NCBI GenBank assembly: GCA_964016885.1
Contig: OZ024740.1
Location: 294,624,001 to 294,688,000, forward strand
Reading direction: 5' to 3'
Source: Eledone cirrhosa
Taxonomy: Eukaryota
Length of the DNA stretch: 64,000 nt
Positions 14,148 to 62,870 of this stretch are shown here, one piece after another. The position numbers and the translations under genes were made by a program. Position 1 is the first letter of the stretch, and each line of letters opens with the position of its first letter. The notes beneath the pieces are model-generated. The model did no database searches. It was given only the letters and a program-made list of their open reading frames with translations, and had not been told where the DNA came from.

Positions 14148-16189
14148 GTAAATATGTTTGTGTTTCTAGTATCTGCTTTCATAAAATACAGTATTAAATT
14201 TGGCATGGGTTGGCAGAATCGGTAGGACCCCAGAAAAATGCTTTGCAGTGTTTCTTCTGTTTCTTTACATTCTGAATTCAAATGCCTTTTATCCTTCCAG
14301 GGTTGATAAAACAAAGTACTAGTCAAATACTTGGGCCAATGCAATCGACTTTCCCTTTCTCACAGAATTGTTGGCCTAAATTAGAAATTATCAACCTTTT
14401 AGTTGGATCTTTTAAGAAAACACCACCAAAACTGTAGACTTATAGATGATGTGGGTTTTCATTTAATCCTTTGAACCCTACAATTTAAATATCCTTGCAG
14501 ACCCATAAGCTCAAATATCAGAATAAACTATGTTTTTGTGCCAATACAACTGCCTTATCAACATTTCTATACAATTTTTAACAGCGTAGTTGTTACTTAA
14601 TGCCATATTTCTAGTGAAAGACATTATCTATGGTTTTCAAATGATTTAATAATTTTTTAAATAATCAAGAATTTGGAGAGATTTAGTAATCTGATTAACT
14701 TTCTCATATACTAAAATTGCAGTCTGAAAGTCACTAATAAGAATTGGAAGATATTTTTCAGTTGGTCATTATAAAGTTTTATAAGGAAACAAACAGTCTC
14801 AAGATATCCTTTGGTTGTCTGTCGAGACATCATCATCATTTAATGTCTGCTTTCCTTGCTACCAAGGGTTGTATGGGTAGGTCTACACAGACTAAGTCAG
14901 TACAGAAGAGGAGCCACTGATCTCCCTGGAAGGCCAGTGATCTATGTCTTATTTTATGTACAGTCGATGCTCTACCGAGTGCACTGAGGTTGTCATGTCT
15001 TTGACTCAGCTGACAGTCCTCACAATCCTTTTGTTTGGCAAGCTTTCTACAACTAGATGCCCTTCCTATCACCAACCACTTTACAGCATGTACTGATTGC
15101 GATTATCGTGTAGGTCACCAAACACTAAGGAGACTCATGTCCTTGACATGACTGAAGGGTCCTCCTAACCCCTTGTTTGTTTAGCCCTCCACAGCTGAAT
15201 GCCCTTCCCATCACCAACCACTTCACAGAGTGGGGTGCATGTGTGGTGGAGTTGAAGTAGTGACGTTGGGGAGTGCTAGTGGAGGCAGAGGGTCATAGGG
15301 GTAGGTCAGGTTACATTGTATGCTGCAGGTTGGGTCTTCCTCAGCACTGCATAGCACCAGCCCCTGCGATCTTTTGTCATTTCTGTTGTGAGGTTTAGTA
15401 TTTTATTTTCGAGATTTGTTATTGGGGTACATTAGACGAAAACTAATTATAAACTGTGGAGATATTATAACCCCCCTCCACTCCCATCAATGCTGGTGTC
15501 GCAATATATATGCATCCAAGCCACTCTGTAAAGTGGAAATGTTGGTAGCATGCCAAAAAGTACCCAATACACTCTGTAAAGTGGTAGTGCTGGAGTCACG
15601 TTAAAATATTTCCAGTACACGCTATAAAATAGAAACCAAGCCCAAAACAGAGCCTATGAACCAGACATGCTCACCTGACTGATCTACCCTCTGTATATGA
15701 CAACCCATCGATGGAAAATAGATGTTAAACAGCAATGATGATGTTTTGTGATTTTAATACAACATATTAAGCTATGAAGTTATATTTAACTCTTAACCCT
15801 TTAGCATTTAAACCAGCCATATCCGACCAGAATTCTCTCACCTCTTTCTGGTCAAACCGGCCGCTCATACTGATATTAAAGTATTGTTCTCAAAATAAAT
15901 ATCAAAATCTCTTAGATTCAATATTTTGTGAGATAAAGCCTTTGCCACAAAAATACAATAGTAAATATAGAGTAATGTAAATGCTAAATGAAATCACATT
16001 AGCAAAATGGTCTTGAAGCAAAATACAAAACAACACTATCTTCACATTAAAAAATTAGTCTTTATTCAAATATTGCAATTTTTTACAAAAGATACTATAA
16101 ATATTTGAATTAACTTATTTTTAGATATTTTTTACTAAATTTTTACATGATGTTTAGAGTTAAATATTTTTTGTTTTTTTCTCATTTAG

Positions 16190-16304
16190 TGAGGAAAGAA
16201 TCAGAAATGGCATAAAAAAACTGAAGAAGGCTCGCCAAGGTTCAACACAGGGAAGATTAGATAATTTCTTTCAAGTGACGTCAGTAACTTCAACAAAACG
16301 AAAG
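16190..16304 (+). CDS. FEN1: FEN1 exon with PCNA-interacting PIP box ([38 protein letters not shown])
   Basis: TTTAG / GTATCT; QGRLDNFF at 16248-16271 is the canonical FEN1 PIP box. Confidence 0.96.
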
Positions 16305-18040
16305 GTATCTATTGTTCACTGCATTGAACCATTTTTTACCTAACTCTTTCATTTCTAATGAAAAACACTGCCCTTAATTTTCAAATAATTTTGAAAAAGT
16401 CTAGAATTTGTAGATGTTTAATATCATAATAGGCGAATTGGTAGATTTGTTAGAATGTCAGATAGAATGCTTTGCGGTATTTGTTCTGGCTCTCACCACT
16501 CTGAGTTCCCGCTGAAGTCAACTTTGCTTTTTTTCCTTTCGATGTTGATAATAAAAAAAGTACTAGTCTAGTACTGGGGTCAATTCTTCCTCTATATTTT
16601 TCTCACTTCCTCTTTCCTTCAATACTGGAGTTGTTTCTTCTTCTCTATCTTTCTCACTTCCTCTCTCCTACAATTTCCTTCAATACTGGGGTTTTTTCTT
16701 CCTCTATATCTCTTTCTCATTCCCTCTCTCTCTCCTTACTGGGGTTGTTTTTTCCTCTCCTTTTCATTCTCTGGAAGAAATCTGCTATGTTCAAACCTGG
16801 AGAGGGGATGGACTCTGCTAGACATTAAAAAATGCCCAATAAGTGCTGTATGATACTATGGCATCCTTACAACTCCACCAGGAGTTAGGGTTCATACAAT
16901 AACATAAATTTATTATTAAGCTGGAGTTTAGAACAAAAGTTCTTAGAATTATGGTGGAAGGTTTTTAAATAAATATATATATAAACAATTTTGTATCATA
17001 GAACAAGGGTGGTTTGGTATCAAAAGATTTTACCTTTTTGTGACCTTATTTCTATATGTTACAATAGATTTTGAAAATAATTAAGAATTAGGAACAATTT
17101 AACTAGAATTTTTTTTTTATTATTATACTAATTATATTAATTCTGATATAAAGTATAATATATCTTAAAATGTTCTTACATAGAATTATAGTGGAAGGTT
17201 TTTAATTTAAACATGAACACTTTAAAATAGAGGGTTTTGTATATTAGAACCAAAGCCGGCTTCAGATGGGTCGGTGTCGGAATGGTTAAAGATTACATTT
17301 CAAGAAAATTCCCATTTGGAGTAAATAGATTCCTACAGCTAAATAAAGACAGCATAATTGAAGTATGAAACCATAAACCTTGAGGTTTCTGTACAAGATC
17401 CACTTGAATTCTTAACATACTGGACTTCGTAGTTGTAGATTGCAAAGTTTATATAACAATCTTTATTCTGTGTCTTTCAAATCTAATGTATAATTTACAA
17501 TTTTCTCTAACTCTTTTAAAACCAATCCACCCAAAACAGTTATGTGAAATAAAACAACACATTTTAAAGAATTCCTATTTAAATTAAAACCTTCCAACAT
17601 AATTTGATATTAGAAACTTTTGAGCTTGGCTGGTCTCACTTGGAGACCCAGCCAGATCAGTTGGAGACAGTTGCTTATGACTGGACCCACTGGAAGGAGT
17701 GTTTGAGGACTCTGCTCCAACGACCCTATGAGGAATAAGTGGGCAAAGAAGAAACCTTCGTTATGTTACAAATACCATCTTATTAATGAAATAATTTTAG
17801 TGAATTCCTCCAAATGTTTCATTTAATTAATTGAGAAATAGTGTATTTCATAAGAAATGTTGTAATGAAACAGTTAGTGCATTTAGAATGTTAGAAATGT
17901 TATTTAACCCCTAAGTTAATTCTGATATAAAGTATAATATATCAGGAAACAATGTAAGGCAGTAGGGATTTGGTTGATATTTTTAGTGGGTTGGGTGACA
18001 GGTAGAGTTTACTTTGTTGTGATACTGTATAGTAAGAATA

Positions 18041-18653
18041 TCTATATATATATATATAACTGAGGATGTCTGTCTGTCTGAGTTTGAATCCCTAAAACTT
18101 GAGAAGTACCCAACCGACTTTTTTCAAACTTTACATGTGTATTATGTTTCAGGGAGTGTTATGCACATAAAAAAATTCAACTTTTTGATCCCCTAGGGCC
18201 CGCATTAGGTGAAAAACTGCATTTTTTCAGCTTTTTAGGTTTTTTTTAAGGCATTACGTCAGACCAATTTCCTTGAAATTGTAACTATGTATTAGTCAGT
18301 CTCTTCTTCATACCGTGAGCAAAGAAAATCCAACTTTTTTTATGGCCTAGGGTCCACATTAGGTGAAAAACTTCATTTTTGAGGCATTACGTCTAGCCGA
18401 TTTTCCCGAAATTTCAAGGTATATTATGCACATAAAGAAATTCATTTTCTTGATCCCCTAGGGCTCACATTAGGTGAAAACCTGCATTTTTCCTGCTTCA
18501 TCGAGGAAAATCTTAAAGATTATCCAGCCATCAGAGTATTCGGTTTATTTTCTTTACATATTGTCCAGGCATGCAGTTTTTCCACGATTAGGTCTGTTGG
18601 CAGCCCGCGTTCCAAAATACTTTATCCCGTGCAACGCTGGGTACCACTGCTAG
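18041..18653 (+). mobile_element. Non-autonomous Helitron-type element
   Basis: 5' TC, (TA)n/(GTCT)n near the start, 3' hairpin CCCGTGCAACGCTGGG then CTAG; inserted between A|T of a minisatellite unit (TATAGTAAGAATA|TAGGTAATAAAA) with no TSD; about three internal subrepeats. Confidence 0.85.
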
Positions 18654-19660
18654 TAGGTAATAAAACAGGACTATATCTTTACATACAATATAGTAGGAAT
18701 ATAGACAATAAAATTGAAGTATCTTTACATACTATATAGTATGAATATAGGTAATAAAATTGTAGTATCTTTACATATATAGTAGGAATATGGGTAATAA
18801 AACAGGACTATATCTTTACATACTATATAGTAGGAATATAGACAATAAAATTGAAGTATCTTTACATAGGTAATAAAATTGGACTATACAGTAGGAATAT
18901 AGGCAATAAAATTTGAGTATCTTGACATACAATGTAGTACAGGGGTCGACAACCTTTTGGGGTGTCTGGACCACATTGCTATGCAATGTCTCGTCAGCAG
19001 GCCACACAGCTATGCAGTTTCCCGCCAGCAGGCCACACAGCTATGCAGTTTCTCGCCAGCAGGCCACACAGCTATGCAGTTTCTTGCCAGCAGGCCTTGA
19101 TATCAAAATTCAATAAATTTACTCAACCTCAGACTGCTCTGTCCAGAAGGCTCAAATGAAATAACTATGCCAGACATGCTGACCTTTTTAGGTAAGTCTG
19201 GGTCATTCCACATCCCTGCCATACACATACTATGTATGCACATATATACACAAGTACACACACAGTCCTGTTGACCTCAATGTCTGAGTTTGATTGTTAT
19301 TGTCACGCAAAAAAATTATGTTCAGCTAAGTGAATCTTGTGGCTAGACATGTTCTCTAGTCGGTATTCTAATCCCAAATAATTCAGAGCACTTTTTCAGG
19401 GATCACTTAGCCTAAGATTGAAACCTTTTGGCAGGTCAGACAAAAGTTGCTGGATGTGACCCACAGGCCAGGGGTTGCTGACTCCTGATATAGTAGGAAT
19501 ATAGGCCATAAAATTGGAGTACCTTTACATACTATATAGTAGGAATATAGGTAATAAAATTGGAGTACCTTTACATACTATATAGTAGGAATATAGGCCA
19601 TAAAATTGGAGTACCTTTACATACTATATAGTAGGAATATAGGTAATAAAATTGGAGTAT
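18654..19660. repeat. ~46-bp minisatellite (ATACTATATAGTAGGAATATAGGTAATAAAATTGGAGTATCTTTAC) interrupted by a hAT MITE
   Basis: Units at 18654-18939 and 19488-19660. Confidence 0.88.
18940..19487. mobile_element. hAT-type non-autonomous element
   Basis: TIRs CAGGGGTCGACAACC / GGTTGCTGACTCCTG; 8-bp TSD ATGTAGTA (18932) / ATATAGTA (19488); internal 31-bp tandem. Confidence 0.85.
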
Positions 19661-20375
19661 CTGCAGCTGTTGCAGAGGTCAAAATTTGGTCGAATTCTTC
19701 TGATGAACTTGGGGAACAGATTCTTACAAATGAAGTGAAACAAAAAGAGGCAGTTGTTTGGGACTTTCAGTGCTTATGGAGAATGCTTGATTGTGTATGT
19801 ATGTGCCTGTAACTCCTGATGGAGCCATAGAGGGACTGTGATGACATGCTGTATGTTTTGGGCATGGCAGAACCCTTCCCTCTCCAGGTCTGAACATAGT
19901 AAATATTTTTCAGAGAAAAAATATATAAGAAAAATTGACTTCAATACTGAACTGATACTTTTTTATCCACCTTGAAAGGATGAAAGGCAAAGTTGACTGT
20001 AGCAGGATTTTTAACTCAGAGCGTAGCAAGCCAGAATGAATGCTCAAAGTATTCCATCTGACGTTCTAACGTCTGCCAATTTGTTACCCACCTTGTAGTA
20101 GTAATAAAACAAAAGCTTGGAGTAAAATAATTAGACAAGACCTAGTATTAGATCTAATAGAAGACAGTTGATTAGATGTAATGTGTAAAGCCATTCCACT
20201 TGATCTAGACTACAGTTCAATGATAATGTTTTGAATTTATATTGCTCCTCCAAGATTCCTATTGTCATCATGTAATATCTTTTTGAATTTAATTTCATCA
20301 AAATATTTATTATTTATTTCGTTTCTGAATTTGTTTAGCAAGATTCTTTATCTGAAATCGTGTGTTGAAACCGAT

Positions 20376-20896
20376 ATTGTTATACTTTGGGAGGGTCATG
20401 TTGCCAATAAGAAACACACGCACCAGTTGCTTTCACTTCAATTTAATTTAATATATATTTATAAATTTACAAATTTATAAATTTCTGGTTGGTTGGTTGG
20501 TTGGTTCCACAACCAGATAGTTGTTTATATATATATAGTCATAGTTCTTTCGTCACACACTCTGTGACCTCTTCAGTGACTGGGGATTTCTTTCTTCGTT
20601 TCTGTGCCTTTCCTTTCTTCTATCCTACGCCATTTTTCAAAAATGGCGTAGGATAGAAGAAAGGAAAGGCACAGAAACGAAGAAAGAAATCCCCAGTCAC
20701 TGAAGAGGTCACAGAGTGTGTGACGAAAGAACTATGACTATATATATATAAACAACTATCTGGTTGTGGAACCAACCAACCAACCAGAAATTTATAAATT
20801 TGTAAATTTATAAATATATATTAAATTAAATTGAAGTGAAAGCAACTGGTGCGTGTGTTTCTTATTGGCAACATGACCCTCCCAAAGTATAACAAT
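20376..20896. mobile_element. 521-bp foldback palindrome carrying a hammerhead motif in each arm; probable Penelope-like inverted pLTR insertion
   Basis: Arms are reverse complements around C20638 (GCCATTTTT-C-AAAAATGGC); the only difference seen is one GGTT unit. Confidence 0.85.
20695..20739 (+). ncRNA. Minimal type I hammerhead ribozyme motif (mirror copy on - strand at 20537-20581)
   Basis: AGUCA-CUGAAGA-G-GUCACA(GAGUG)UGUGAC-GAA-AGAACU-A/UGACU: 5-bp stem I, intact core, 6-bp stem II, rudimentary stem III, CUA cleavage triplet. Confidence 0.8.
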
Positions 20897-20940
20897 TTAT
20901 TATTTAATTTCCTTTAATATCTTTATAATTCAATTTTCAG

Positions 20941-21003
20941 TCTGATGACATGAAGGGTGATAAAAAGAAAGCCAAAAACAAAAGTTTAAAAAAACGAAAA
21001 TAA
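20941..21003 (+). CDS. FEN1: FEN1 terminal exon (SDDMKGDKKKAKNKSLKKRK*), basic NLS tail
   Basis: TTTTCAG acceptor, phase 0, lysine-rich tail like FEN1 'KGSTKKKAK...KFKRGK', TAA stop. Confidence 0.88.
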   Translation, partial: SDDMKGDKKKAKNKSLKKRK

Positions 21004-21040
21004 ATGAAATTTGAAAGAATCAAAATTTTTTAACACTTCT

Positions 21041-21050
21041 AATAAATAAA
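21041..21050 (+). promoter_or_regulatory. Candidate FEN1 polyadenylation signal (overlapping AATAAA x2)
   Basis: AATAAATAAA 38 nt after the stop, followed by a T/GT-rich tract. Confidence 0.6.
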
Positions 21051-23214
21051 ATACCAGTTTTTACGAATTTTTTGTTGTCATTATTTGATTTCAACTTTCT
21101 GAGAAGGTCATGGGGGAAGAGTCTCAAACACTGTTTCCAGCAGGTCCTGTCAGAAGCAACCTTTGGATCCCCAAGTGTGACCAGCTGAGCTCATGGATGT
21201 AATCCAACAATCTTGCTCAGAGTCTACCTGCCAGTTTTGTATCAAAATGTTGGTGATATTTATTTTTCTTGAATTGCAGCAAATATTGTTGTTTAGCTAC
21301 AGATCAGCACTGATTTCCCAAGACTGTTATCTAATCTGACCATTTAAACTGGCCAGAATTCTGTCACCTCATTCTGTTCAAATAGACTATAACCGTCCAC
21401 TCATACCAACATTAAGGTATTGTTCTCAAAATAAATGTCAAAATCTCAGATTCGATATTATGTGAGATAAAGCTTTTACCATGAACGCACAATAGTAAAC
21501 CAATGCTAGTGTGGAAGGTAGACGTTAAATGATTAGAGTAATGTAAATGCTAAAGACAATTAGGTTTAATTTGAGGGGGATTTACTATTGTTTCTGGCAG
21601 GTTGAATGACCAGGTACATCCAACATTGACTGATATATTTCTATTTCTTAAGTTAAACCCCAATCAGTCTTATATGGATATAAATTAACAATCATTTTCA
21701 GGCCATTTCCTTTGCTAAAGCAAGGGTTAGCTTTGTGGAGCCCATGACAAGCTTCTACATTTTTTCTTGACTACCCTGTCTTTCATTCACTCCTTCTTGC
21801 ATGTCTTTCTTAGTTTCCCCCTTCCTCTAATTCCTTCTATATTCATTTCTATCATTCCTTTCATCTTTCCTCAACCATCTTATTCCATTTCTCTTCACAG
21901 TATTCATCATCTGCAATTCTGTCTCAGCAACACACACTTCCACTCGACCATTCTCATTTTGGTTCTTTCCTGAGATAATGTTCACCAATAACTTTCCAAT
22001 CATCAGTTTGACTATTGTCAACCATTCAATCACTGTAGTTACACCCATCACACTGTACAAACTTTACAGAAATCAAGACACTCTTGTATTTCTGTCCTTG
22101 TCTTTCTCTTACTATTCTTAAACCATTTCCTTTCCATCTTGTCTCCTACACACAACATATGTCCACTCTTCTATTCGGTGCCTCCACCACTTCTGATCTC
22201 CATGAATGTAATTTAACAAACATTAACATTATCAATAATCGTACAGTACAACACAAAAGAACATACAAAATGTTCCTTCAACAAGTTATATTGTTACTCG
22301 AAGTCCATTTATAATAATCCACTAATAGGAGAACACAAGAGCACTGCAATCATATGGCGAACAATACAATCTAACTTCAAGTGGTTGTTTATATGAGCAA
22401 TGAACAGATCCCATCTTGGGATTCTCATATTTTGTCTGGCATTGTCAGAGTTTTTAGGTCATCTCTTTTATCAATTTTGTGATCTTTCAGTGTTGGTGAG
22501 TATCCTGAGGTCACTTCTTAATTTTACTGATAAAGTTGTTCTTGGTCTTACCTTTATCTGATTTATATCCAAAAAGAAAATGTTATTTCCTTCAAAGAAC
22601 TATTTCAATGTTAATGACCATACTCAAAAGTATAGAGTAAACTGGAGCAATGTGAAATAAAGTGTGTTGTTTCCTTTCACATTGCTCCAGTTTACTCAGC
22701 TGTAGAAATGAGATGATAGGGACTGGGGTCCATATCATTCCACTGCAAAGTGGTCGTGGAGGTGCCACGGTAAAAAAGCACCCAACACACACTGTAAATG
22801 AAGTTGGTGTTAGGAAGGGCATCCAGCTGTAGAAATCAAGCCAAAATCAGTTCCCGTCCCACCCTTGCAAGCAGACGTAAAATGATAGAAAATACGAAAA
22901 TATTCCTTGTTTGTAGGGATATTTATATCTTATCTAGTTACTCCTATTTAACCTGTTTATTTTTTATCGGGTAGCGTATGTTGAAATACTCAAAATCCTA
23001 TATCACCCACCATTTTCTGTACAGTTGAAATCAACCAGGCTGAGAAACGCTGATTTAAATTAAAATCTTCCAGTGCAATTTTAATACAAGAACCATTTAA
23101 GTTAATTTACAAATATTAGTCTTAATAACTTTAGTAAATACCTCCAATTCTATATTAATTCAAATATAATATATTTCATTAGAAATATTGTAATGAAAAG
23201 GTTAATCCTTCATC

Positions 23215-23495
23215 TACACAGTCAATGTTACCTCACTACTTTAACTGTATGTCACTTTTGCAATATATTTTATATAAGCAAGATTGGCCACAATCTGAGT
23301 GATCGTTTCTGAGAACACTTCACTGTCTGAAACAAAGCAACAGGAATCTTCCAACCAGTAGCCTTTCACTTCAACTCACTTAGCCATCCCTTATTCTGTG
23401 GAATACTCCAGAACCAGTGTTGTGGAGACCTGCCATCTCAAGGAGCAATGACTCATTCCAACTTGGGACTTTCTGTACTCTATGCTATGAACTTC
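23215..23495 (+). pseudogene. Decayed GIY-YIG endonuclease of a Penelope-like retroelement
   Basis: Translates to ...CHFCNIFYISKIGHNLSDRF*EHF...QPVAFHFNSLSH, matching the PLE pattern CxxC-xx-YIGETGRxLxxRFxEH...PVAxHFN; contains stops. Confidence 0.72.
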
Positions 23496-24060
23496 CTTTC
23501 ATTCTGCAAACAACAACATAGATGGGGAATTTGGTGAATAATCAATAGAAAAACAAAACAAAGATTGCGTGAATTGAGATATTTTTAATTCTCGTTGTTT
23601 GACAATTCCGAAGTATTTACATTTTTACACAATTTCCATTAATAGAGCAGTAATGTTTGTATGAAATAATATTTCTATTTTTTTTAATAAACGTTTATAA
23701 AAATAAAAATAATTACAATTCCAAAAATTCTAATAAAAATTCACCAGGTTTTTTTTTTTTGTCGGAATGAAAATCACATTAAAAAAATTGCTTTCAGACT
23801 AAGAAAATTTATCCAATTTGTAGAAAGCATAGGAAAATATTTTTTAATTGCCCCAGGTTTAAAAATTAACCATTTTCAGTCTTTCTATAGCTAAATTATG
23901 AACATTGAACATATGAAAAAAAAAAAAGATTTTTTTTATGGAAAGGGGCATCAAATATGGATGTGATTAATATATCTTATTGCAAATATCAACTCATTAG
24001 TCTTAAATTTTCAACAGATGATGGATTTTAAGTTGTAAATGCATTTAATAATCGTATGAT

Positions 24061-24407
24061 TTACAGAATTTTTCTATCTAGCATGGCCTGAAGTTGTTCT
24101 GGAATTGGAGCACCTTTCTGAAGAAATAAACTTCTACACAATTTAAGTTCTTGAACTAAGGTTTTAATATGTTCTTCTAGCTGTTTGTTTTCTTCTTTGA
24201 GCTGAGAGACACGTTTTTGAGTTGTGTCTCGCAATGATTTAGCTTTGATTCTACTTTTACGTACAGCAATATTGTTTCGTTCACGTTTACTTTTATATTC
24301 ATGATTATTGGGTGTGGTATTATCATCTCCTAAATCTTGTAGACTTTCAGTCTCTGAACTTTTTAAATTACACACATCTCCTTCATTTATAGTTAATAAA
24401 GCGTTAT
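24061..24407 (-). CDS. CEBPG: C/EBP-gamma-like bZIP transcription factor, exon 2 (basic region + leucine zipper)
   Basis: EYKSKRERNNIAVRKSRIKAK...RVSQLKEENKQLEEHIKTLVQEL...LFL closely follows C/EBP-gamma; polypyrimidine + CAG acceptor at 24410-24408; TAA stop at 24063-24061. Confidence 0.88.
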
Positions 24408-25094
24408 CTGAAAAGAAAAAAAAAATTAGATTTAGTTATAATCGCCTAAATATGAGATTAACATGAGTATTGTTTCATAATGTAATTAAGAATAAGTATT
24501 GTTTATAATTAATCACCCGCGGTAATGCTGCGAACGTGTTGGTTTGCCTCAAAATTACCGTTGACTCTTGTGATATGGTGTATGACCGATTGTCGCACTT
24601 GGTGGTGAATTGATGGTTTTGGTGTTTTTTTTCTTTCTCTCTCGCTTTGATCATATATTTTGTGCGTTCCATGTGTAAGGTCCCAAGCAATAATTAATTG
24701 TATTTATAATAAGTGTTTATATTTTCATTCTGTAAGAACTCTAAACAATGAGTAATCTGATTTATACAACTGTGAACTTCAAAATTCCTAAACATAATTC
24801 GACTTTTTTTTATCATTTGTTGATAGAGGAACAAAATTCTCGCTACTGAGTTAGTTGACAGGGAGGGTAATAAGAGACTCAAAAGATATTCGACATTATA
24901 AACAGGATCTTAATAATCCGAAAAATTATAATCTGCGACGAAAAAAAACAAAACAATAATTACGTTTGTTTTTTCTAGCTATTGGTATAAAAACCGATAA
25001 TTTTTTTTTTTTAATTATTATACCTTCAAAACCTTAAACTAATCTCTTTTTGTTGAATGTGAAGAGAAGTGGAACATGTTGAAAACTTTCAGCA

Positions 25095-25365
25095 AAATTG
25101 CATCATTTGTGTGGAGAAGGGAGCTGTGAAATGTTAGTCGTGTGTTGACAATCAGCAATTTTCCAGTGTAACTTTATATAACTTTATGCTTTACAGCTAA
25201 AAACCTATTAGAAATATATTATTCCTTTTACTTTACACCCGTTAAACTGATACATTTTTAGTTGTAAAAATAAAGTTATATAAAATTACTCTGGAAAATT
25301 GCTGGTTTGTCAACACACGACTAACAGTTCATCCCCACCCTTTTCTCACACAAATGATGCAATTT
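25095..25365. mobile_element. Inverted-repeat (MITE-like) element in the CEBPG intron, ~100-bp imperfect arms
   Basis: AAATTGCATCATTTGTG...GTTAGTCGTGTGTTGACAA...CAGCAATTTTCCAG is mirrored by CTGGAAAATTGCTG...TTGTCAACACACGACTAAC...CACAAATGATGCAATTT. Confidence 0.85.
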
Positions 25366-26279
25366 ATTATTTCTCTTACTTAACATTAGTTAAAATTTGT
25401 AATTACTTTTGAATTATTAAAGAGAGAGCTAGTAAAGTACACACTAATGTATTTAATTTAGTGAATTTTCTTAGTAAATTATCAAAATCTAAGAATTGGA
25501 TAGGAAGTATTTATTCACTTAATGAGTGTAAAGAAAGAGAAACGAAAGATTTTAGGGAGCTATTCTGGAAAAATCGCCAATCGTTTTAATGTTCATTGAT
25601 AAATAGATCAAGTGTCAATAAGTTAAACTTGAAATTTTAAAATAAACGAAGTAAATAAACAAATAGAATAGTGGAATAAATAGCAAGTACTTTTCAAATG
25701 AAATAGTAATAATTGTTTCTACTTTTGGCACAAGGCCAGGAATTATCCCAGTGTATTACTGGTACTTTATTTTATCGACCCCGTAAGGATGAAAGGCAAA
25801 GTTAACCTCGGCAGGATAATAATCTGATTTTAGTATTTGCTAATTTTCTTTATATCGCTGGATCTCAGTCGTTGTCGACGATGAGTATTCTAGTTATTCG
25901 ATCAAGGTTGACCGAGGGCTAAACAACAGTTGCATTAGGTAAGTATATGATGGTGTATTAAATAACAATGTATACAATAATTAATAACAATATATCAGAA
26001 TCATATTGTGAAAAGTGAAAAAAAAAATTGAACCATTCTAACTAAAAGTTAGGAGGGCCATAGCCTTATAGGGGCTCAGTAAGAAGGTTTCAAAAGAAGG
26101 CCCCGGGTTGAAGATTTCTTTGGGGAGAAGGCGTCAAATGTGTCTATTTTCATGAGAACACTTGCTACGCTACTGCATCCACTATCAACATAGAAAACCT
26201 AACCAAGCAACATCGATGAAGTTTATGTTCAATTTGGAATAAAGATTTCGATAAAAAAAAAAAGAACAGATATACCAAC

Positions 26280-26514
26280 CTTCGTAAAGAGTAGTAGTAT
26301 TCAATATACTGTCGGCAATGTTAGGGATTGAAATGTCTGGCTTTTGATCGACAGACGATTGAATAGTTTCAGTGTTTTCGCGTTGTTGTACTGAATGAAG
26401 GAAGTCTGATATCTCTGAAAATCTTGCGGGGTCTGTAAGTGAATTAAACGACGGTTCTCGTGCACCTAAGCTACAAAAATCCAGATCGTTGTCAGACATT
26501 TCCATTGTGTTCAT
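26280..26514 (-). CDS. CEBPG: C/EBP-gamma-like gene, exon 1 (MNTMEMSDNDLDF...TTTLYE)
   Basis: Open frame from ATG 26514; donor GTTGGT after 26280; phase 1 G+AT gives Asp in frame with exon 2 (193-aa product). The N-terminus is not recognisable by homology. Confidence 0.7.
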
Positions 26515-26957
26515 TGCAAACAAGTTTGAAGAAAATAATATAAAAGAGACAATATTAGCAAGGTACCCTATTAAGCGAGATGAACAGTACCTTATGAATA
26601 ACAAGTGGTGAACAGGCGTTTCTTGCGCATGTAGCACTAAATCTGTATCAATACACGTTGCCTCGTTATTTAGAAATAAAATAAAATAAATATACTTCCT
26701 AATATTTACGTATTATTGTTATTTTGTAAATATAATCAACATTAAAGATTTGTCTTTTTCATCAGAAATAATACATGAATTAAAGAGAGTAAAATTTATA
26801 GAGAACTATTTTTTTAATGCGTATGTATTGCAAATCTCAGGCTTCTAAAAATAGTTACTACGCAATACACAGAACAAAGCTATATATATATAGCACTTTG
26901 TTCCGTGTATGAACATAAATATATGTATATTTATTTATATGTATATATTTATTCTTC

Positions 26958-32703: not shown

Positions 32704-33561
32704 CGAGGGCAATCCCAAAAGTAAGGTCTCCAAAGCGATGGGGACGCAGAGAAACTGTTCGTATGGCTGTTGTGATTGGTGCTTCCTTCACTGGGATGCT
32801 CAATCTTGGCTTGGCAGCTGTTGAGAATGGAGCTCCCGTTGAACGCTACCGCCAAGTGCGAAGTTCGCGCAGTTATTCGGTTTTTGAACGCAAAAGGCGT
32901 TGAACCGATTGAAATTCATCGGCAATTGACTGAAATGTATGGACAGTCGTGCATGGATGTCAAAAACGTTCGCAAGTGGTGTAGAGAGTTTACAGCCGGT
33001 CGTACTGAAATTCACGACGAACAAAAGAGCGGGAGACCGTCAATTTCCGACGAGACAGTCGCAAAGGTTGAGGAAAACATGCGCACACCTTTCGGTTAAA
33101 ATCCTGTGGATGGTGCTTCGGGAAACCTCAGGAACCAAAATGCAGAGAGAATCCATAGTGATCTCCCGATCTTTACGTATGTTTTCCTCAACCTTTGCGA
33201 TTGTCTCGTCGGAAATTGACGGTCTCAAGCTGTAAACTCTTTACACCACTTGTGAACGTTTTTGACATCCATGCATGACTGTCCATACACTTCCGTCAAT
33301 TGGGGATGAATTTCAATCGGTTCAATGCCTTTTGCGTTAAAAAAACGAATAACTGCGCGAACTTCGCACTTAGTGGTAGCGTTCAACGGGAGCTCCATTC
33401 TCAACGGCTGCCAAGCCAAGATTGAGCATCCCAGCGAAGCGCGTGCATGCTTGTTTGGGAGTGAAGGAAGCACCAATCACAACAGTGCTGCCAACAGCCG
33501 TACAAACATTTTCTTTTGTGTCCCCATCGCTTTGGAGACCTTACTTTTAGGATTGCCCTCG
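32704..33561. mobile_element. Foldback mariner derivative made of two inverted left-end fragments
   Basis: TIRs CGAGGGCAATCCYAAAAGTAAGGTCTCC flanked by TA; both arms encode the mariner N-terminal HTH (EVRAVIRF...EIH.QLTE.YGQSCM...KWC...GRPS); no catalytic domain. Confidence 0.9.
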
Positions 33562-35998: not shown

Positions 35999-37231
35999 TT
36001 ACTGTCTATGTTCATTAATAAAATGTGAAGTAAAACTATAAACATCATGATAAATGTCACCACATAAATTGCACTGCCAAGGGTTTTCAGGGTCATGAAG
36101 TCCCATATGCATCACATAAAGTGCATTGTCAAAATAAAGAATATTACAATGTGGGCAAGTAAAACTTCGACTGTTGCCAATACATTTGTCTGTAACGTTT
36201 GAACTAGAAACTGTTGCTGCTGAAGAATGAGAGCTTGTTTCTGCAATAGTACTTGTTACTCCAATATCTTTGATAAAAGGTGGAGTTCTTGGAGTTGGTG
36301 ACTGACCACTTTCAAGGGATTGTGGAGGTGTTTGACGAATAGGGAGATGATCTTTAGAAAGCAAAACAGATGGTTGCAAAGAAAAATATGTATAAGAAGA
36401 TTTGGCGAGCCCTGTAACTGAGATGTGCTCTGGAACTGTACTACTCTGTGGAGCAGCAGATACAAGGGACCTATTTGCTTGCTCCTGAAAATCAGAAACA
36501 GACTGTTTATTTAATGTTACATTAGAAAGATTTAACATGCTTGTGTTATGAAAAGAATCCTGAACTGATAAACTTTCATCAATAATATAGCAATCATCTT
36601 CATTGGTCTCAGATTCCATTTTTACAGAAGGAACATTTTTAGAATATTGGACAGCTTCATTAGAATAATTTGTATTTGTGGCAGTCAATCGAGTGTCGGG
36701 TTCATTAACTCCATATTGATTAGTTGCAAATCGTAAAGAGGAATTATCAGCTGATGGTTGGTTAGGGAGTGGTATGAATCCAGACTGGAAAACTTTATGC
36801 TTAAAATGCATATGCTTTTTTAGGTCATATTTTCTTTTTGCGGCATACTCACAAAGATCACAGATGAAAGGACGGACATCGGAATGAACTACGCAATGAC
36901 TTACAATTTTGCTACGGAATGGAGAAGAAAAAGAACAGCTCTCACAGTGAAACAACCTACGTTTGTCATCGTCCAATCCACTTCCCTGAGTACTGTTGTT
37001 TCCTTTATCAATAGTTGTGTCGTCACTTATATCTGATACATTTCCAAGAAATGTTTGTGGTTCATTATGTACTTGATTGTGATGTATCAAATCTGAGTGA
37101 AACTCAGTAGTGAATGAACACTGATCACATTGGAAATGTTTCTCAACATGTGAGTTTTCCATAGAACTAGCAGAATCGTTCATGATGATAGAATCAACAT
37201 ATGAGATGGATATCAAACCTGCTCCAACAAC
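35999..37231 (-). CDS. Ikaros/Hunchback/Pegasus-like C2H2 zinc-finger protein, terminal coding exon (probable start ATG 37183, 394 aa)
   Basis: Three N-terminal C2H2 fingers and a C-terminal pair FTCPHCNILYFDNALYVMHMGLH-DPENPWQCNLCG...FTSHFINEH, typical of the Ikaros/Hunchback dimerisation fingers; acceptor TTTATTTCCACAG ending at 37232. Confidence 0.9.
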   Translation of the reverse strand, partial: VVGAGLISISYVDSIIMNDSASSMENSHVEKHFQCDQCSFTTEFHSDLIHHNQVHNEPQTFLGNVSDISDDTTIDKGNNSTQGSGLDDDKRRLFHCESCSFSSPFRSKIVSHCVVHSDVRPFICDLCEYAAKRKYDLKKHMHFKHKVFQSGFIPLPNQPSADNSSLRFATNQYGVNEPDTRLTATNTNYSNEAVQYSKNVPSVKMESETNEDDCYIIDESLSVQDSFHNTSMLNLSNVTLNKQSVSDFQEQANRSLVSAAPQSSTVPEHISVTGLAKSSYTYFSLQPSVLLSKDHLPIRQTPPQSLESGQSPTPRTPPFIKDIGVTSTIAETSSHSSAATVSSSNVTDKCIGNSRSFTCPHCNILYFDNALYVMHMGLHDPENPWQCNLCGDIYHDVYSFTSHFINEHRQ

Positions 37232-38141
37232 CTGTGGAAATAAAATAGCATAAAAATAAATAAAATACCATTTAAAATGGTTTTACATATTTTAATCATT
37301 TAATATAGTAGAAATATGATAATGAAAGAGCTAAACTGTTGTGAAACCTAACTCTTGACTACCTTTAGTGGAATTTAGCTGTTGCAAGCATATGGGCCAG
37401 GTCCCTGGTCTGAGGATATGCTTCTTCTTCCTTCCACCAGTCCTGGAGACCCTAAACAAGAATCACAAGCACTTCCCTTCCTCCTTTCATTAAATTTTGG
37501 TTAGAACAGATTTTTTGATGTCTCTCTTCCATTGATTGATTGATTCAAACAAGTCATCAGAATAGTTGACAGTATGGAACATTAACCCAGAAAGCGATAC
37601 AAGTTAAATGGCAATAACTAACAAGAATACATTGGGAACATTAAAGTTGATTAAATCAATGTTAGTACTAGACTGGTACTTTATTTTATCAACCCAGGAA
37701 GGATGAAAAGCAAAGTTGACCATGGCGGGATTAGAACACAGAATATAAAGAGCTAGAACAAATATCTTAATGGCATTTTATCCGACGCTCTACCAATTCT
37801 ACCAATAACACTAATTAAAACCATAACAACAATATTTCAGATTTGAAAAAGAAGTTATAATTAGTATATGACAGAGAAGCAATAAATACTTCACAATTGA
37901 TTAGTGTTTTTTGTTTTGTTTTTAGGGTGTTATTGTTTCTTATTCAGTTGAGAGTAGGCAACTTGGGTCTGCCTCACATGTCCTTCATTGATTTTACCTA
38001 GCAAGATAATAAAGTCACTGTCAATTGTTAAGGTCAGCTACATGAGGTCCTCAGATATAGTTAGCTCTTTGTTGTGCATAAGTGGAGATAACTGTTTCCG
38101 TTCTATTGCCTATCTCTATTCTGTCACTCAACTACCTCTAT

Positions 38142-46275: not shown

Positions 46276-46318
46276 ACGTTGCTGACGATAGCTAATAAGC
46301 TTGAAACTAGTACAGCGT
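46276..46318 (+). ncRNA. Minimal type I hammerhead motif
   Basis: ACGUUG-CUGACGA-U-AGCU(AAUA)AGCU-U-GAA-ACUAGU-A/CAGCGU: 6-bp stem I, palindromic stem III, GUA triplet, U-U mismatch at the base of stem II. Confidence 0.7.
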
Positions 46319-59560: not shown

Positions 59561-62261
59561 TCGCTCCCATTCTGAATTGTCATTTAGGAATTTTTTCATC
59601 ATTATACCTTTACAGCGGTAATTATTAATAAAAGTTATTAAAGTAAATTACTTTATTTTCTTTTTGTGAAATGTTAATTCAAGGTGTTCTTATATATTGG
59701 TATAAGTATAATGGTATTTCATATGATATATATAGTTAGGTATATTGGTTTTTATATATATAGAGATTGTAAATTGGCAGAGTTATTTGAACATTGGATC
59801 GAATGCTTTGTGGTATTCATTCTGGTTGTTTGTGTTCTCTGAGTTTAAAACCCGCCTAGGTTAACTCTGCCTTTCATCATTTCGAGGCCGATGAAAAAAA
59901 GTACCAGTAGAGTATTGACATCAATTTTTCCTCTATATCTTTTTCTCACTTCCTCTCTCCTGCTCTGAAAGAAATTGGCTGTGTTCAGACTTGGAGAGGA
60001 GATGGACTCCACCAAGTTTAAATGCCTAAGACATTGTATGTCACTACAGTACCCCTAAAATTCAATCAGGACTTAAGGGTCCATACATACATATATATAT
60101 ACACAAGGTACATTATTTCTTTTCTCAGTTTAGATTCCTTCCCTGACTAACATTCCTCGACTGGGAGCCAAGTTTGCAAATCATTGTTGTAGAATGTCTA
60201 ATGTACATTTTATTGTCAATCTAACAAACCTATCTAAGAAATGATAGTGCTCAATACATTGTATACCACTAGGGTGGTGAATTGGTAGAGCATTGGATAA
60301 AATGCCATTGTGGTATTTGTTCTGGCTTTTTACATTCTTAGTTCAAATCCTTTTAAGGTCAACTTTGCTTTTCATCCTTCTGTGGTTGATAAAATAAAGT
60401 ACCAGTTAAATACTGGGGAAGATTTAATCAACTTTGCCCTTCCTCCAATTTTGCAGCCCTTATGCCTAAATTAGAAATGAATATGTTGTTTACAACTTAG
60501 TAATGGTGCACATGACTTAAGTAACATAGAGCCCGATGAAGACTGATTCACAATCCTCTCTAGCAGAACACATGCTCTGCTCTTAACGTCTTGTAAAGTA
60601 AACCTAACAATTAAATAACGAAAGTATGGTGCAGTGAGGAGGGAGTGGCAGATACTACACCCCAGTCAAAGTGGTATATCTCAGCTGCACCCTGTGGATA
60701 AAATGCTGAAGGCAATGACATGGAGCACTAGGGAGATTATTATGTCTTTGACAAAGATGAAGAGTCCTCTCATGGCACCAGAACTAGGGAGGTTATCATG
60801 TCTTTGACAAAGCTAAAAAGTCCCCTCATGCACCAGGTATACTTTATCGTGGCACCAGCACCAGGTATACTTTATCGTGGCACCAGCACTAGGGAAGTTA
60901 TGTCTTTGTCAAAGCTGAAAAGTCATCCTGACTACCCAAAATAAAAGAACATATTTTCCTCAGTTTCAGATGAAATAATAAACATCAACCGATTTTATTT
61001 CATGTTAACATATTTATTGACATTATTAACACATGTATTTAGAATTGTTTTTGATGGAAACAAACAAAATCTCAGTTCCCCATTGAGAGAAAAACAAACA
61101 AACAATAGAACAAATAAAATTTTAAACAGTAATTTAACATGTTTCATTAAAGATGTAGACAAACACATTCAATGGAAAATACTTAAGATTTTAGAAATAT
61201 CACAGTTGGTTCAGGTTGCTAAAACAATAAAGATCTAAAGTATTAGGAAAGAAATAATGATGATAGTAACCTGGGATAAGAATAATTAAAATTGATATAT
61301 ATATATCTATTTTTATATATGTATGTGTGTGTACATGCGTGTATGTGTGTACATATATATATATGTATGTGTGTATATGTGTATATATATATATATGTGT
61401 GTGTGTATGTAAAAGAGAGAAGGAGCAGAGGTACATAGCTATTTCAGTAGTAAAATGATATTCACAACATGGAATGACTATTACATATCTATGAAAGAAT
61501 AATTAAGGTTGTTTATAGCTTTAACCAAATTTTTTCTTACACTACGATATGGAATGAAACAATTTTTTTTTTTAACAACTGTTGATTTATGAAGTATTGG
61601 GAATGTTTGAAATTTAAAATGTGAGTATCCCAACACAGGAATGGCTGTAATATGGTCAATCACTATAAATAATAGTTTAGAAAATCGAGTAAAGTAACCC
61701 TGGCAACAGAAAAGAGTGGACAGTAGAACCTGTGAGGTATCGAACCATGTATTGGAGAGACACGGTGCTGCATTCCTCAGAGGCACCTCTATCCATTTTT
61801 TCCATCTCCAGGGGTATTTTCTCAACTATTATTTATAGCGAGCAACTATATTAAAGTAATTTCTGCATTGGGATGCCCACATTTCAAATATCAATGTATG
61901 CTTTTTCTTTTTATTACTAAAACAGGATCTGCCAAAAGCAATTTTAAAACATTTTTGTAATAGTCGCAATTTAAACCTTGGAAGTTCACAAATAAGTAGG
62001 TAAATGTAGATAATATTAATCTATTGCAATTAATTAACTATTAATATAGATATAAAACGAAAACTTTAATGCTTACATTCTAAACTGTATTGCCAAAAAT
62101 ATTTAAAAATATTTTCCTATAAGAATTGAAAAAAACATTTGTAAAATAACATTATTATCAAATATTTTCTGATTAAACAATTTGTCATGACAATATGAGT
62201 CTTTAAAAAAAACGAACTTAATTATAACGTGTGTGTGTGTGCATGCATATATTATATATAT

Positions 62262-62870
62262 ATATTATTCAAAATATGAAGACGTTGACATAATCAAATT
62301 ATATATATTTCAGAGGTACTGTGCTGTTTTTTCAGTACGTCCTCATCAGATAAAATATATGAATTGATGTATGACATACTTCAACTGTCTTGATGGTTCA
62401 ATTCCAGTATTGGCAGTGATTTATTACAACAAATCTCAATATTTATATACACAAATAATAACATGATAAACTTAAATATGATGAAGAAGAAGATGTGGAG
62501 CGAGATATAAGTATAAGGAGAGGGTGAGTATGAGAAAATGTAAGAAGAAATAAATAAATAAATTTATTTATTTCTTCTTACATTTTCTCATACTCACCCC
62601 CTCCTTATATCTCGCTCCACATCCTCTTCTTCATCATATTTAAGTTTATCATGTTATTATTTGTGATATATAAATATTGAGATTTGTTGTAATAAATCAC
62701 TGCCAATACTGGAATTGAACCATCAAGACAGTTGAAGTATGTCATACATCAATTCATATATTTTATCTGATGAGGACGTACTGAAAAAACAGCACAGTAC
62801 CTCTGAAATATATATAATAAAACATTTTGATTATGTGAACGTCTTCATTTATTAATATTTTGAATAATAT
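62262..62870. mobile_element. ~610-bp foldback palindrome with hammerhead motif; probable Penelope-like inverted pLTR insertion
   Basis: Arms mirror around AA at 62560-62561 with a few small indels. Confidence 0.85.
62761..62822 (+). ncRNA. Type I hammerhead motif (damaged mirror copy at ~62296-62356, - strand)
   Basis: UUUUAU-CUGAUGA-GGACGUACUG(11 nt)CAGUACCUCU-GAA-AUAUAUAU-A/AUAAAA. Confidence 0.75.

Follow-up and report, generated by a model that had tools for sequence, protein, structure and literature searches.

The last intron of the FEN1 gene in the 64,000-nucleotide stretch of Eledone cirrhosa DNA analyzed here (the window) very probably contains a 5′-truncated, head-to-head insertion of an abundant Penelope-like retrotransposon. 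The insertion is likely to be recent and polymorphic, its hammerhead motif is predicted to be locked, and it likely has no role in FEN1. It adds 590 bp at an AT-rich site, and its layout is of a known and published kind, since the inverted-pLTR arrangement of endonuclease-bearing Penelope-like elements is described in passages of PMC3846280 and PMC8557442. The features of the insertion and of the adjoining gene are as follows.

16190-16304, + strand: penultimate FEN1 exon, with the PIP box QGRLDNFF and donor GT at 16305; corresponds to FEN1 residues 317-355 (E 1.1e-10)
20305-20316, + strand: left copy of the target-site duplication, ATTTATTATTTA; 10-12 bp, with two bases ambiguous; recurs at 20895-20906
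20317-20375, − strand: 59-nt Penelope tail on the left arm, equal to codons 9-28 of the element ORF; family copies, too, carry this sequence after the pLTR end
20376-20896: inverted repeat of 521 nt, centered on the single base C20638, from palindrome and arm alignment
20376-20637, − strand: 262-nt left arm, a pLTR copy with five AACC units, antisense to FEN1
20537-20581, − strand: hammerhead in the left arm, the exact antisense of the right-arm motif
20638, no strand: head-to-head junction with a TCA/TGA center, immediately 5′ of AAAATGGCG; the family junction hot spot
20639-20896, + strand: right arm, a tail-less pLTR copy in the FEN1 sense; 258 nt, four AACC units
20695-20739, + strand: minimal type I hammerhead motif, predicted cleavage site after A20734 (CUA); from pattern, fold and match to passages on published min-HHR (PMC4209133)
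20895-20906, + strand: right copy of the target-site duplication, ATTTATTATTTA; the public contig X1 ceases to match at 20895
20897-20940, + strand: 3′ remainder of the last intron; yUnAy motifs at 20904, 20914 and 20922 as branch-point candidates, a pyrimidine tract, and the only AG at 20939
20941 to about 21067, + strand: last FEN1 exon, SDDMKGDKKKAKNKSLKKRK; the stop codon is 21001-21003, AATAAA occurs at 21041 and again at 21045, and polyadenylation is probable near 21067

Within the inverted repeat the two arms align with no mismatch and a single indel of one 4-nt AACC unit. An earlier note on this DNA had described a 521-nt inverted repeat with a 1-nt center that ends 44 nt ahead of the acceptor, and these coordinates are borne out, with the acceptor AG at 20939-20940. 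The same note called it a perfect 260-bp hairpin. The absence of mismatches stands, but the arms are of unequal length (262 and 258 nt) because of the 4-nt indel. The palindrome likewise runs from 20376 to 20896 as described, but it is not the complete inserted unit. The apparent left flank at 20317-20375 is part of the element, so the unit begins at 20317 with the 59-nt tail, and it is flanked by the 10-12-bp duplication. The right arm shows no mismatch to arms at many other family loci. The hairpin is far above chance expectation, yet it is not rare, for 321 loci have the same center.

The host gene is FEN1. The model TIGR03674 matches exons ahead of and inside the window, and two of the exons match solved FEN1 chains with E values of 4.5e-17 and 1.1e-10. 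The reading phase carries over from the exon that ends at 16304 to the one that begins at 20941. Branch-point candidates were named by yUnAy, which we take to be the branch-point consensus. They, the pyrimidine tract and the AG all lie outside the duplex, the first candidate being 7 nt from its end. The insertion contributes no AATAAA on the sense strand, and there is one ATTAAA inside the duplex. By rough arithmetic about one such hairpin would be expected by chance this near to an acceptor, taking 321 loci, 50 nt, 3 Gb and about 200,000 introns. Past the FEN1 poly(A) site, 21096-21560 is occupied by other high-copy repeats. On the − strand, 24064-26712 and 36002-37282 contain an exon with RERNNIAVRKSR, presumably a C/EBP-like bZIP motif, together with a C2H2 zinc-finger frame of 427 aa; the bZIP exon lies 3 kb downstream of FEN1 and is convergent with it.

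Public reads and contigs were compared over 20835-21700, a range that has the left junction and the hairpin center outside it. Contig X1 (623 nt) matches 20895-21193 without difference, while its other 324 letters do not fit the arm. The edge of the match at 20895 is the left edge of the right duplication copy, which is where an empty allele would diverge, and the contig has a depth of 15.6 compared with 16 and 14.7 in neighboring contigs. Judged by the coordinates of this contig alone, an allele without the insertion most likely exists, and the insertion is likely absent from some chromosomes. Among the records listed over 20835-21700 no read or contig crosses a junction of the occupied allele, which rests on the assembly. 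Contig X4 (3,517 nt) matches 20939-21067 only. It diverges on the left as spliced mRNA would, its match ends about 20 nt past AATAAA, and no X4 contig lies over the unique intron bases 20922-20938. It is taken as RNA solely from this placement, and speaks to FEN1 mRNA rather than to splicing of the hairpin allele. The length of this contig far exceeds that of the FEN1 coding sequence, suggesting either a long leader or a join to a neighboring transcript. The RAD run X20 has no depth over 20922-21037, and the public set X5 has one 145-nt piece of the Penelope family, which was set aside. Letter differences across the arm in reads come from pooled family copies, and are uninformative on editing.

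The right arm contains a complete hammerhead core. Helix I has 5 bp (AGTCA/TGACT); after it come CTGAAGA, a single additional G, the 6-bp helix II and GAAA, while helix III is rudimentary, with two pairs and a 2-nt loop. The motif features of the min-HHR are present, namely the C3-A9 core, the extra base, helix II, GAAA, NUH and helix I. A motif scan of the whole window placed the core at 20700 on the + strand, mirrored at 20576 on the − strand, in agreement with the earlier description of a complete minimal hammerhead in the FEN1 sense at 20695-20739 with its exact antisense in the left arm, and gave weaker candidates at 46282 and 62767. The Rfam scan that had been proposed as a check returned no hammerhead family over 15000-26000 and the right arm at E values up to 10. 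Rfam miRNA matches on the hairpin fell below their own thresholds and were dismissed as generic long-hairpin matches. Among 85 sampled copies (loci L001-L030 and L138-L187) the stretch with the cleavage triplet and helix III reads GAACTTTGACA in 40, GGACTATGACT in 16, GAACTATGACT in 12 and GAACTATGACA in 8. The subfamilies in this sample differ in the cleavage triplet and helix III, with core and helix I intact.

Folding calculations give a predicted −256 kcal/mol for the inner hairpin (20500-20776), within which the predicted probability of the hammerhead helices is below 1e-20. For the 45-mer the predicted values are −85.9 kcal/mol as duplex versus −10.9 kcal/mol as monomer. In the arm alone helix II is predicted to form, helix I to form about a quarter of the time, and helix III with a probability below 0.001. 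The hammerhead is therefore predicted to be locked shut by its built-in antisense arm, as had been proposed; locking is a by-product common to hundreds of copies. Since the FEN1 pre-mRNA carries only one sense hammerhead, no intramolecular dimer is possible. Passages of PMC4209133 report that min-HHR motifs show no cleavage as monomers and weak cleavage as dimers, and those of PMC11167929 that the Penelope hammerhead of Anolis requires the element's own protein for cleavage, while insertion works without the hammerhead.

Further fold-back structures lie elsewhere in the window. At about 62261-62840 lies a second head-to-head palindrome with a hammerhead-like core near each outer end (CTGATGA at 62767). 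It belongs to another family, in which a 23-mer has 5,883 exact genome matches, and no RT-like frame was found in 20 of its loci. Two inverted transposase-start fragments, their arms 93% complementary, form a fold-back at 32720-33560; we take this to be a Tc1/mariner-like family.

The FEN1 insertion is one copy of a very large family. Exact pattern searches, on which all family copy counts are based, gave 16,932 matches to the hammerhead pattern in the 3.0-Gb genome (8,451 + 8,481) and none to a control. The pattern adjoins an ORF with reverse transcriptase and GIY-YIG domains. In the 863-aa frame at L044 the match to PF00078 is weak (E 0.00097), with an RT score below the Pfam cut-off; YVDD and DKSG motifs are present, and PF01541 is above its cut-off in the final 126 aa. 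The protein has 238 homologues at E ≤ 1e-20, the nearest named relative being from Octopus vulgaris (69%). A linker, CIDKKCITC, precedes the endonuclease (VVYSIRC...YIGET), which has two core Cys and HAKIEH. Passages of PMC8557442 define Neptune and Nematis by a CX2-5CxxC linker and a CCHH endonuclease, both found here, and these motif definitions put the element among the canonical Penelope-like elements, as one of the Neptune or Nematis type. Like other endonuclease-bearing Penelope elements it has a short duplication at an AT-rich or microsatellite target, here ATTTATTATTTA on both sides, and pLTRs in tandem or partial tandem, with a tandem array unit of 4,046 nt. In 4 of the 7 loci parsed, from 20 fetched, the frame opened by an ATG at +241 of the pLTR runs on across the tail and joins the ORF. 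Family copies end either at the last base of the arm or 59 nt beyond it, and there are 11,645 exact tailed ends. The copy in the window belongs to a young subfamily. Our literature search found nothing on this family in octopus, and the supplements of PMC4209133 and PMC8557442 may list it.

Tandem arrays of the 4.05-kb unit lie at G000:C4:94730000-94810000 and on C1616 and C1704, and are possible source loci of the family. L043 and L044 (G000:C1:13322600-13335800) are both nearly full length, share the 863-aa frame and are 99.8% alike. They stand head to head over about 12 kb with a tail on only one of them, which is the same layout on a giant scale.

Head-to-head pairing is a property of the family. 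At 321 loci both arms start within about 15 nt of AAAATGGCG. The first 50 of these, including the window, were scored, and 47 were scoreable and 3 not. Exactly one arm is tailed in all 47, and the tail-less end adjoins (TA)n in 46, the FEN1 copy being the exception; in the sister loci the duplications are unreadable within (TA)n. The same junction as in the window is found at L069. Where two full arms could be compared (n = 44), there are on average 0.84 mismatches within a pair versus 3.7 between pairs, 26 pairs are free of mismatches, and the two arms of a pair carry common private variants. Because arms match more closely within pairs than between pairs, the homogenization that had been offered to explain the near-identical arms is unnecessary; arm identity is built in at insertion. 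The alternative in the earlier note, a recent insertion, is likely correct. Its proposal that the hairpin derives from two inverted pLTRs of a Penelope-like element whose hammerhead is of the minimal type I is supported as well.

Among the first 100 hammerhead matches listed, 10 of 13 neighbors within 5 kb are head to head (p 1.3e-4). A head-to-head pair is present in 23 of 50 further regions, drawn from matches 31-100 after removal of regions already taken as pairs. Altogether 65 regions yielded 36 pairs: 31 were scored by script as one-tailed and two more have a tail-only partner, two have two tails, and one is unscoreable. The tailed arm is the longer in 16 of the 33 one-tail pairs, the shorter in 10 and about equal in 7. 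We dropped the notion of a tail-less arm that is invariably a short 5′ pLTR copy, as either arm can extend into the ORF. Short inverted partners do not lie hidden beside all solo copies either: by eye only 5 or 6 of 23 had one. A check of duplication length at 20 loci outside (TA)n gave 17 without an inverted tail in range and 3 that were still microsatellites.

The position of the junction is sharply defined. The 321 loci compare with 19, 5 and 12 for controls at about +20, −62 and +55, an excess of 17- to 64-fold by a test pattern that is confined to the younger subfamily. Many junctions in the family are tiny palindromes. Of 22 arms whose first bases are AAAATGG (24 rows, from which 2 unrelated were dropped), 16 have a G in front of them in place of the family's C, and by eye 11 arms in 7 loci cannot derive this G from the opposite arm. 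AAAATGGCG resembles what we take to be a YY1 site, and GCGCATGCGC, 45 nt upstream of it, presumably an NRF1 site. The pile-up of junctions probably marks the capped 5′ end at which transcription of the RNA begins. With a capped start at AAAATGGCG, the FEN1 copy would be without the upstream motif GCGCATGCGC. An unrelated sequence at L059 and on the minus strand of L035 likewise opens with AAAATGGCGTAGG after TTTCCTAATTAAAT or similar, and is possibly another repeat using the same start motif.

We tentatively propose two priming events on a single RNA, one from each of the nicked strands and at two fixed internal sites, with cDNAs that run off a capped 5′ end before AAAATGGCG and leave the hot spot and a non-templated G. 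The GIY-YIG endonuclease of the element would nick the two strands of an AT-rich site at positions about 12 bp from one another, and each nick would prime reverse transcription at one of two internal starts 59 nt apart, the tail end and the pLTR end. Both cDNAs would extend to the RNA 5′ end just upstream of AAAATGGCG and would then be joined head to head. Two priming sites on one RNA would give exactly one tail per pair, independently truncated arms, and shared private variants. We judge it rather unlikely that the second arm arose instead by fold-back, that is self-priming of a single cDNA, as proposed in passages of PMC3846280. Common private variants in the two arms, the near symmetry of 7 of 33 one-tail pairs, and the many junctions that are tiny palindromes would all be expected from a fold-back, but with a simple fold-back the first strand should always be the longer arm, which the 16, 10 and 7 pairs with a longer, shorter and equal tailed arm contradict. 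The pair data are thus explained better by separate priming of two cDNAs on a single RNA than by a simple fold-back, in keeping with the two starts and the extension of both strands in passages of PMC11167929. A fold-back followed by trimming may nonetheless account for them, and the extra G at the junction has other readings too. We found no paper on twin priming in Penelope-like elements. The choice between the two concerns mechanism only, and leaves the verdict on FEN1 unchanged.

A fold-back read or assembly artefact would accord with the lack of an occupied-allele junction among the public records listed, but a chimeric read would not yield unmirrored flanks, a 4-nt difference between the arms, a one-sided tail and a 12-bp duplication, and we consider an artefact very improbable. 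In the FEN1 pre-mRNA the antisense arm is the earlier of the two to be transcribed, and it would capture the emerging sense arm. The resulting 258-bp duplex would be a likely ADAR substrate, removed with the intron. Editing is plausible because octopus and lizard Penelope copies are hyper-edited; passages of PMC5625713 report heavy hyper-editing in octopus, and editing of Penelope copies and palindromic repeats in lizard. It is this editing, together with the closeness of the duplex end to the acceptor (44 nt) and to the first candidate branch motif (7 nt), that lends some weight to the improbable reading in which an insertion of the same origin measurably alters FEN1 output. The hairpin allele would then be a mildly harmful or modifying polymorphism rather than an evolved switch, acting through delay or failure of last-intron splicing, through hyper-editing, or through retention in the nucleus or silencing by small RNAs. 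Against this, the branch-point candidates, pyrimidine tract and AG are outside the duplex, and no sense-strand AATAAA is added. A self-cleaving switch, gated by editing or a helicase and governing inclusion of the last FEN1 exon, would draw on the complete core motif in sense orientation, and a related Penelope hammerhead does cleave with its own protein present (passages of PMC11167929). Yet hundreds of identical hairpins exist elsewhere, an empty allele is likely, the predicted fold probability is negligible, there is no partner hammerhead on the same strand, and editing would presumably strike the A-rich core too. The chance of such a switch is minute. A conserved intronic regulatory ribozyme would be a single, fixed locus with conservation at the orthologous position, whereas this pattern has 16,932 matches and a likely empty allele. 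The FEN1-specific role envisaged in the earlier note is not supported: locking is common to hundreds of copies, the empty allele is likely, and candidate branch points and the AG are retained downstream.

For FEN1, then, the insertion is most likely of no consequence, one passenger among hundreds. As a probable presence/absence polymorphism in an essential repair gene, with its 258-bp duplex 44 nt from a splice acceptor, it offers a clean natural test of hairpin editing and splicing disturbance in a heavily editing animal. Twin priming with capped run-off, if true, would imply a sense capped template, contrary to the antisense self-priming model. It would also supply thousands of ready-made ADAR hairpins, with the likely polymorphic FEN1 copy as a natural test allele. 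The regular junction pattern yields countable predictions on the formation of the inverted arm and tail, described as unexplained in passages of the papers on Penelope-like elements.

The insertion has much in common with published systems. It shares with endonuclease-bearing Penelope-like elements, as described in passages of PMC3846280 and PMC8557442, the head-to-head pLTRs, the tail at one end, the first ORF codons within the pLTR, AT-rich or (TA)n targets and a GIY-YIG domain at the C terminus; the published duplication is 8-10 bp. The CX4CxxC linker seen here is that described for Neptune and Nematis (PMC8557442, in part). It differs in that the tail is 59 nt rather than the published 30-40, in that the FEN1 copy is without an ORF between the arms, and in the sharp junction hot spot with an extra G, which is absent from the published passages. 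The hammerhead agrees with passages on the min-HHR (PMC4209133) in its helix I of 5 bp, helix II of 6 bp, G10.1-C11.1 pair, rudimentary helix III and one extra base between positions 9 and 10.1, and min-HHR pairs 100-700 bp apart on opposite strands are reported there. Loop 3 differs, being GAAC here and not strictly palindromic, with GGAC in 16 of 85 sampled copies.

PAc, a Poseidon element of Anolis, resembles the present family, according to passages of PMC11167929, in having two adjacent internal reverse-transcription starts that define the tail, in the cutting and extension of both target strands, and in its AT-rich target; its hammerhead is protein-assisted and dispensable for insertion. 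PAc is of another clade, Penelope/Poseidon being without the CX2-5CxxC linker, and its ORF begins inside the hammerhead rather than about 145 nt after it as here. Non-LTR retrozymes, in passages of bioRxiv 10.64898/2026.07.22.740005, are similarly short, protein-less, derived from pLTRs and equipped with a type I hammerhead. They are head-to-tail tandems with two sense hammerheads (at least two by definition), whereas the FEN1 insertion is arranged head to head with one hammerhead on each strand.
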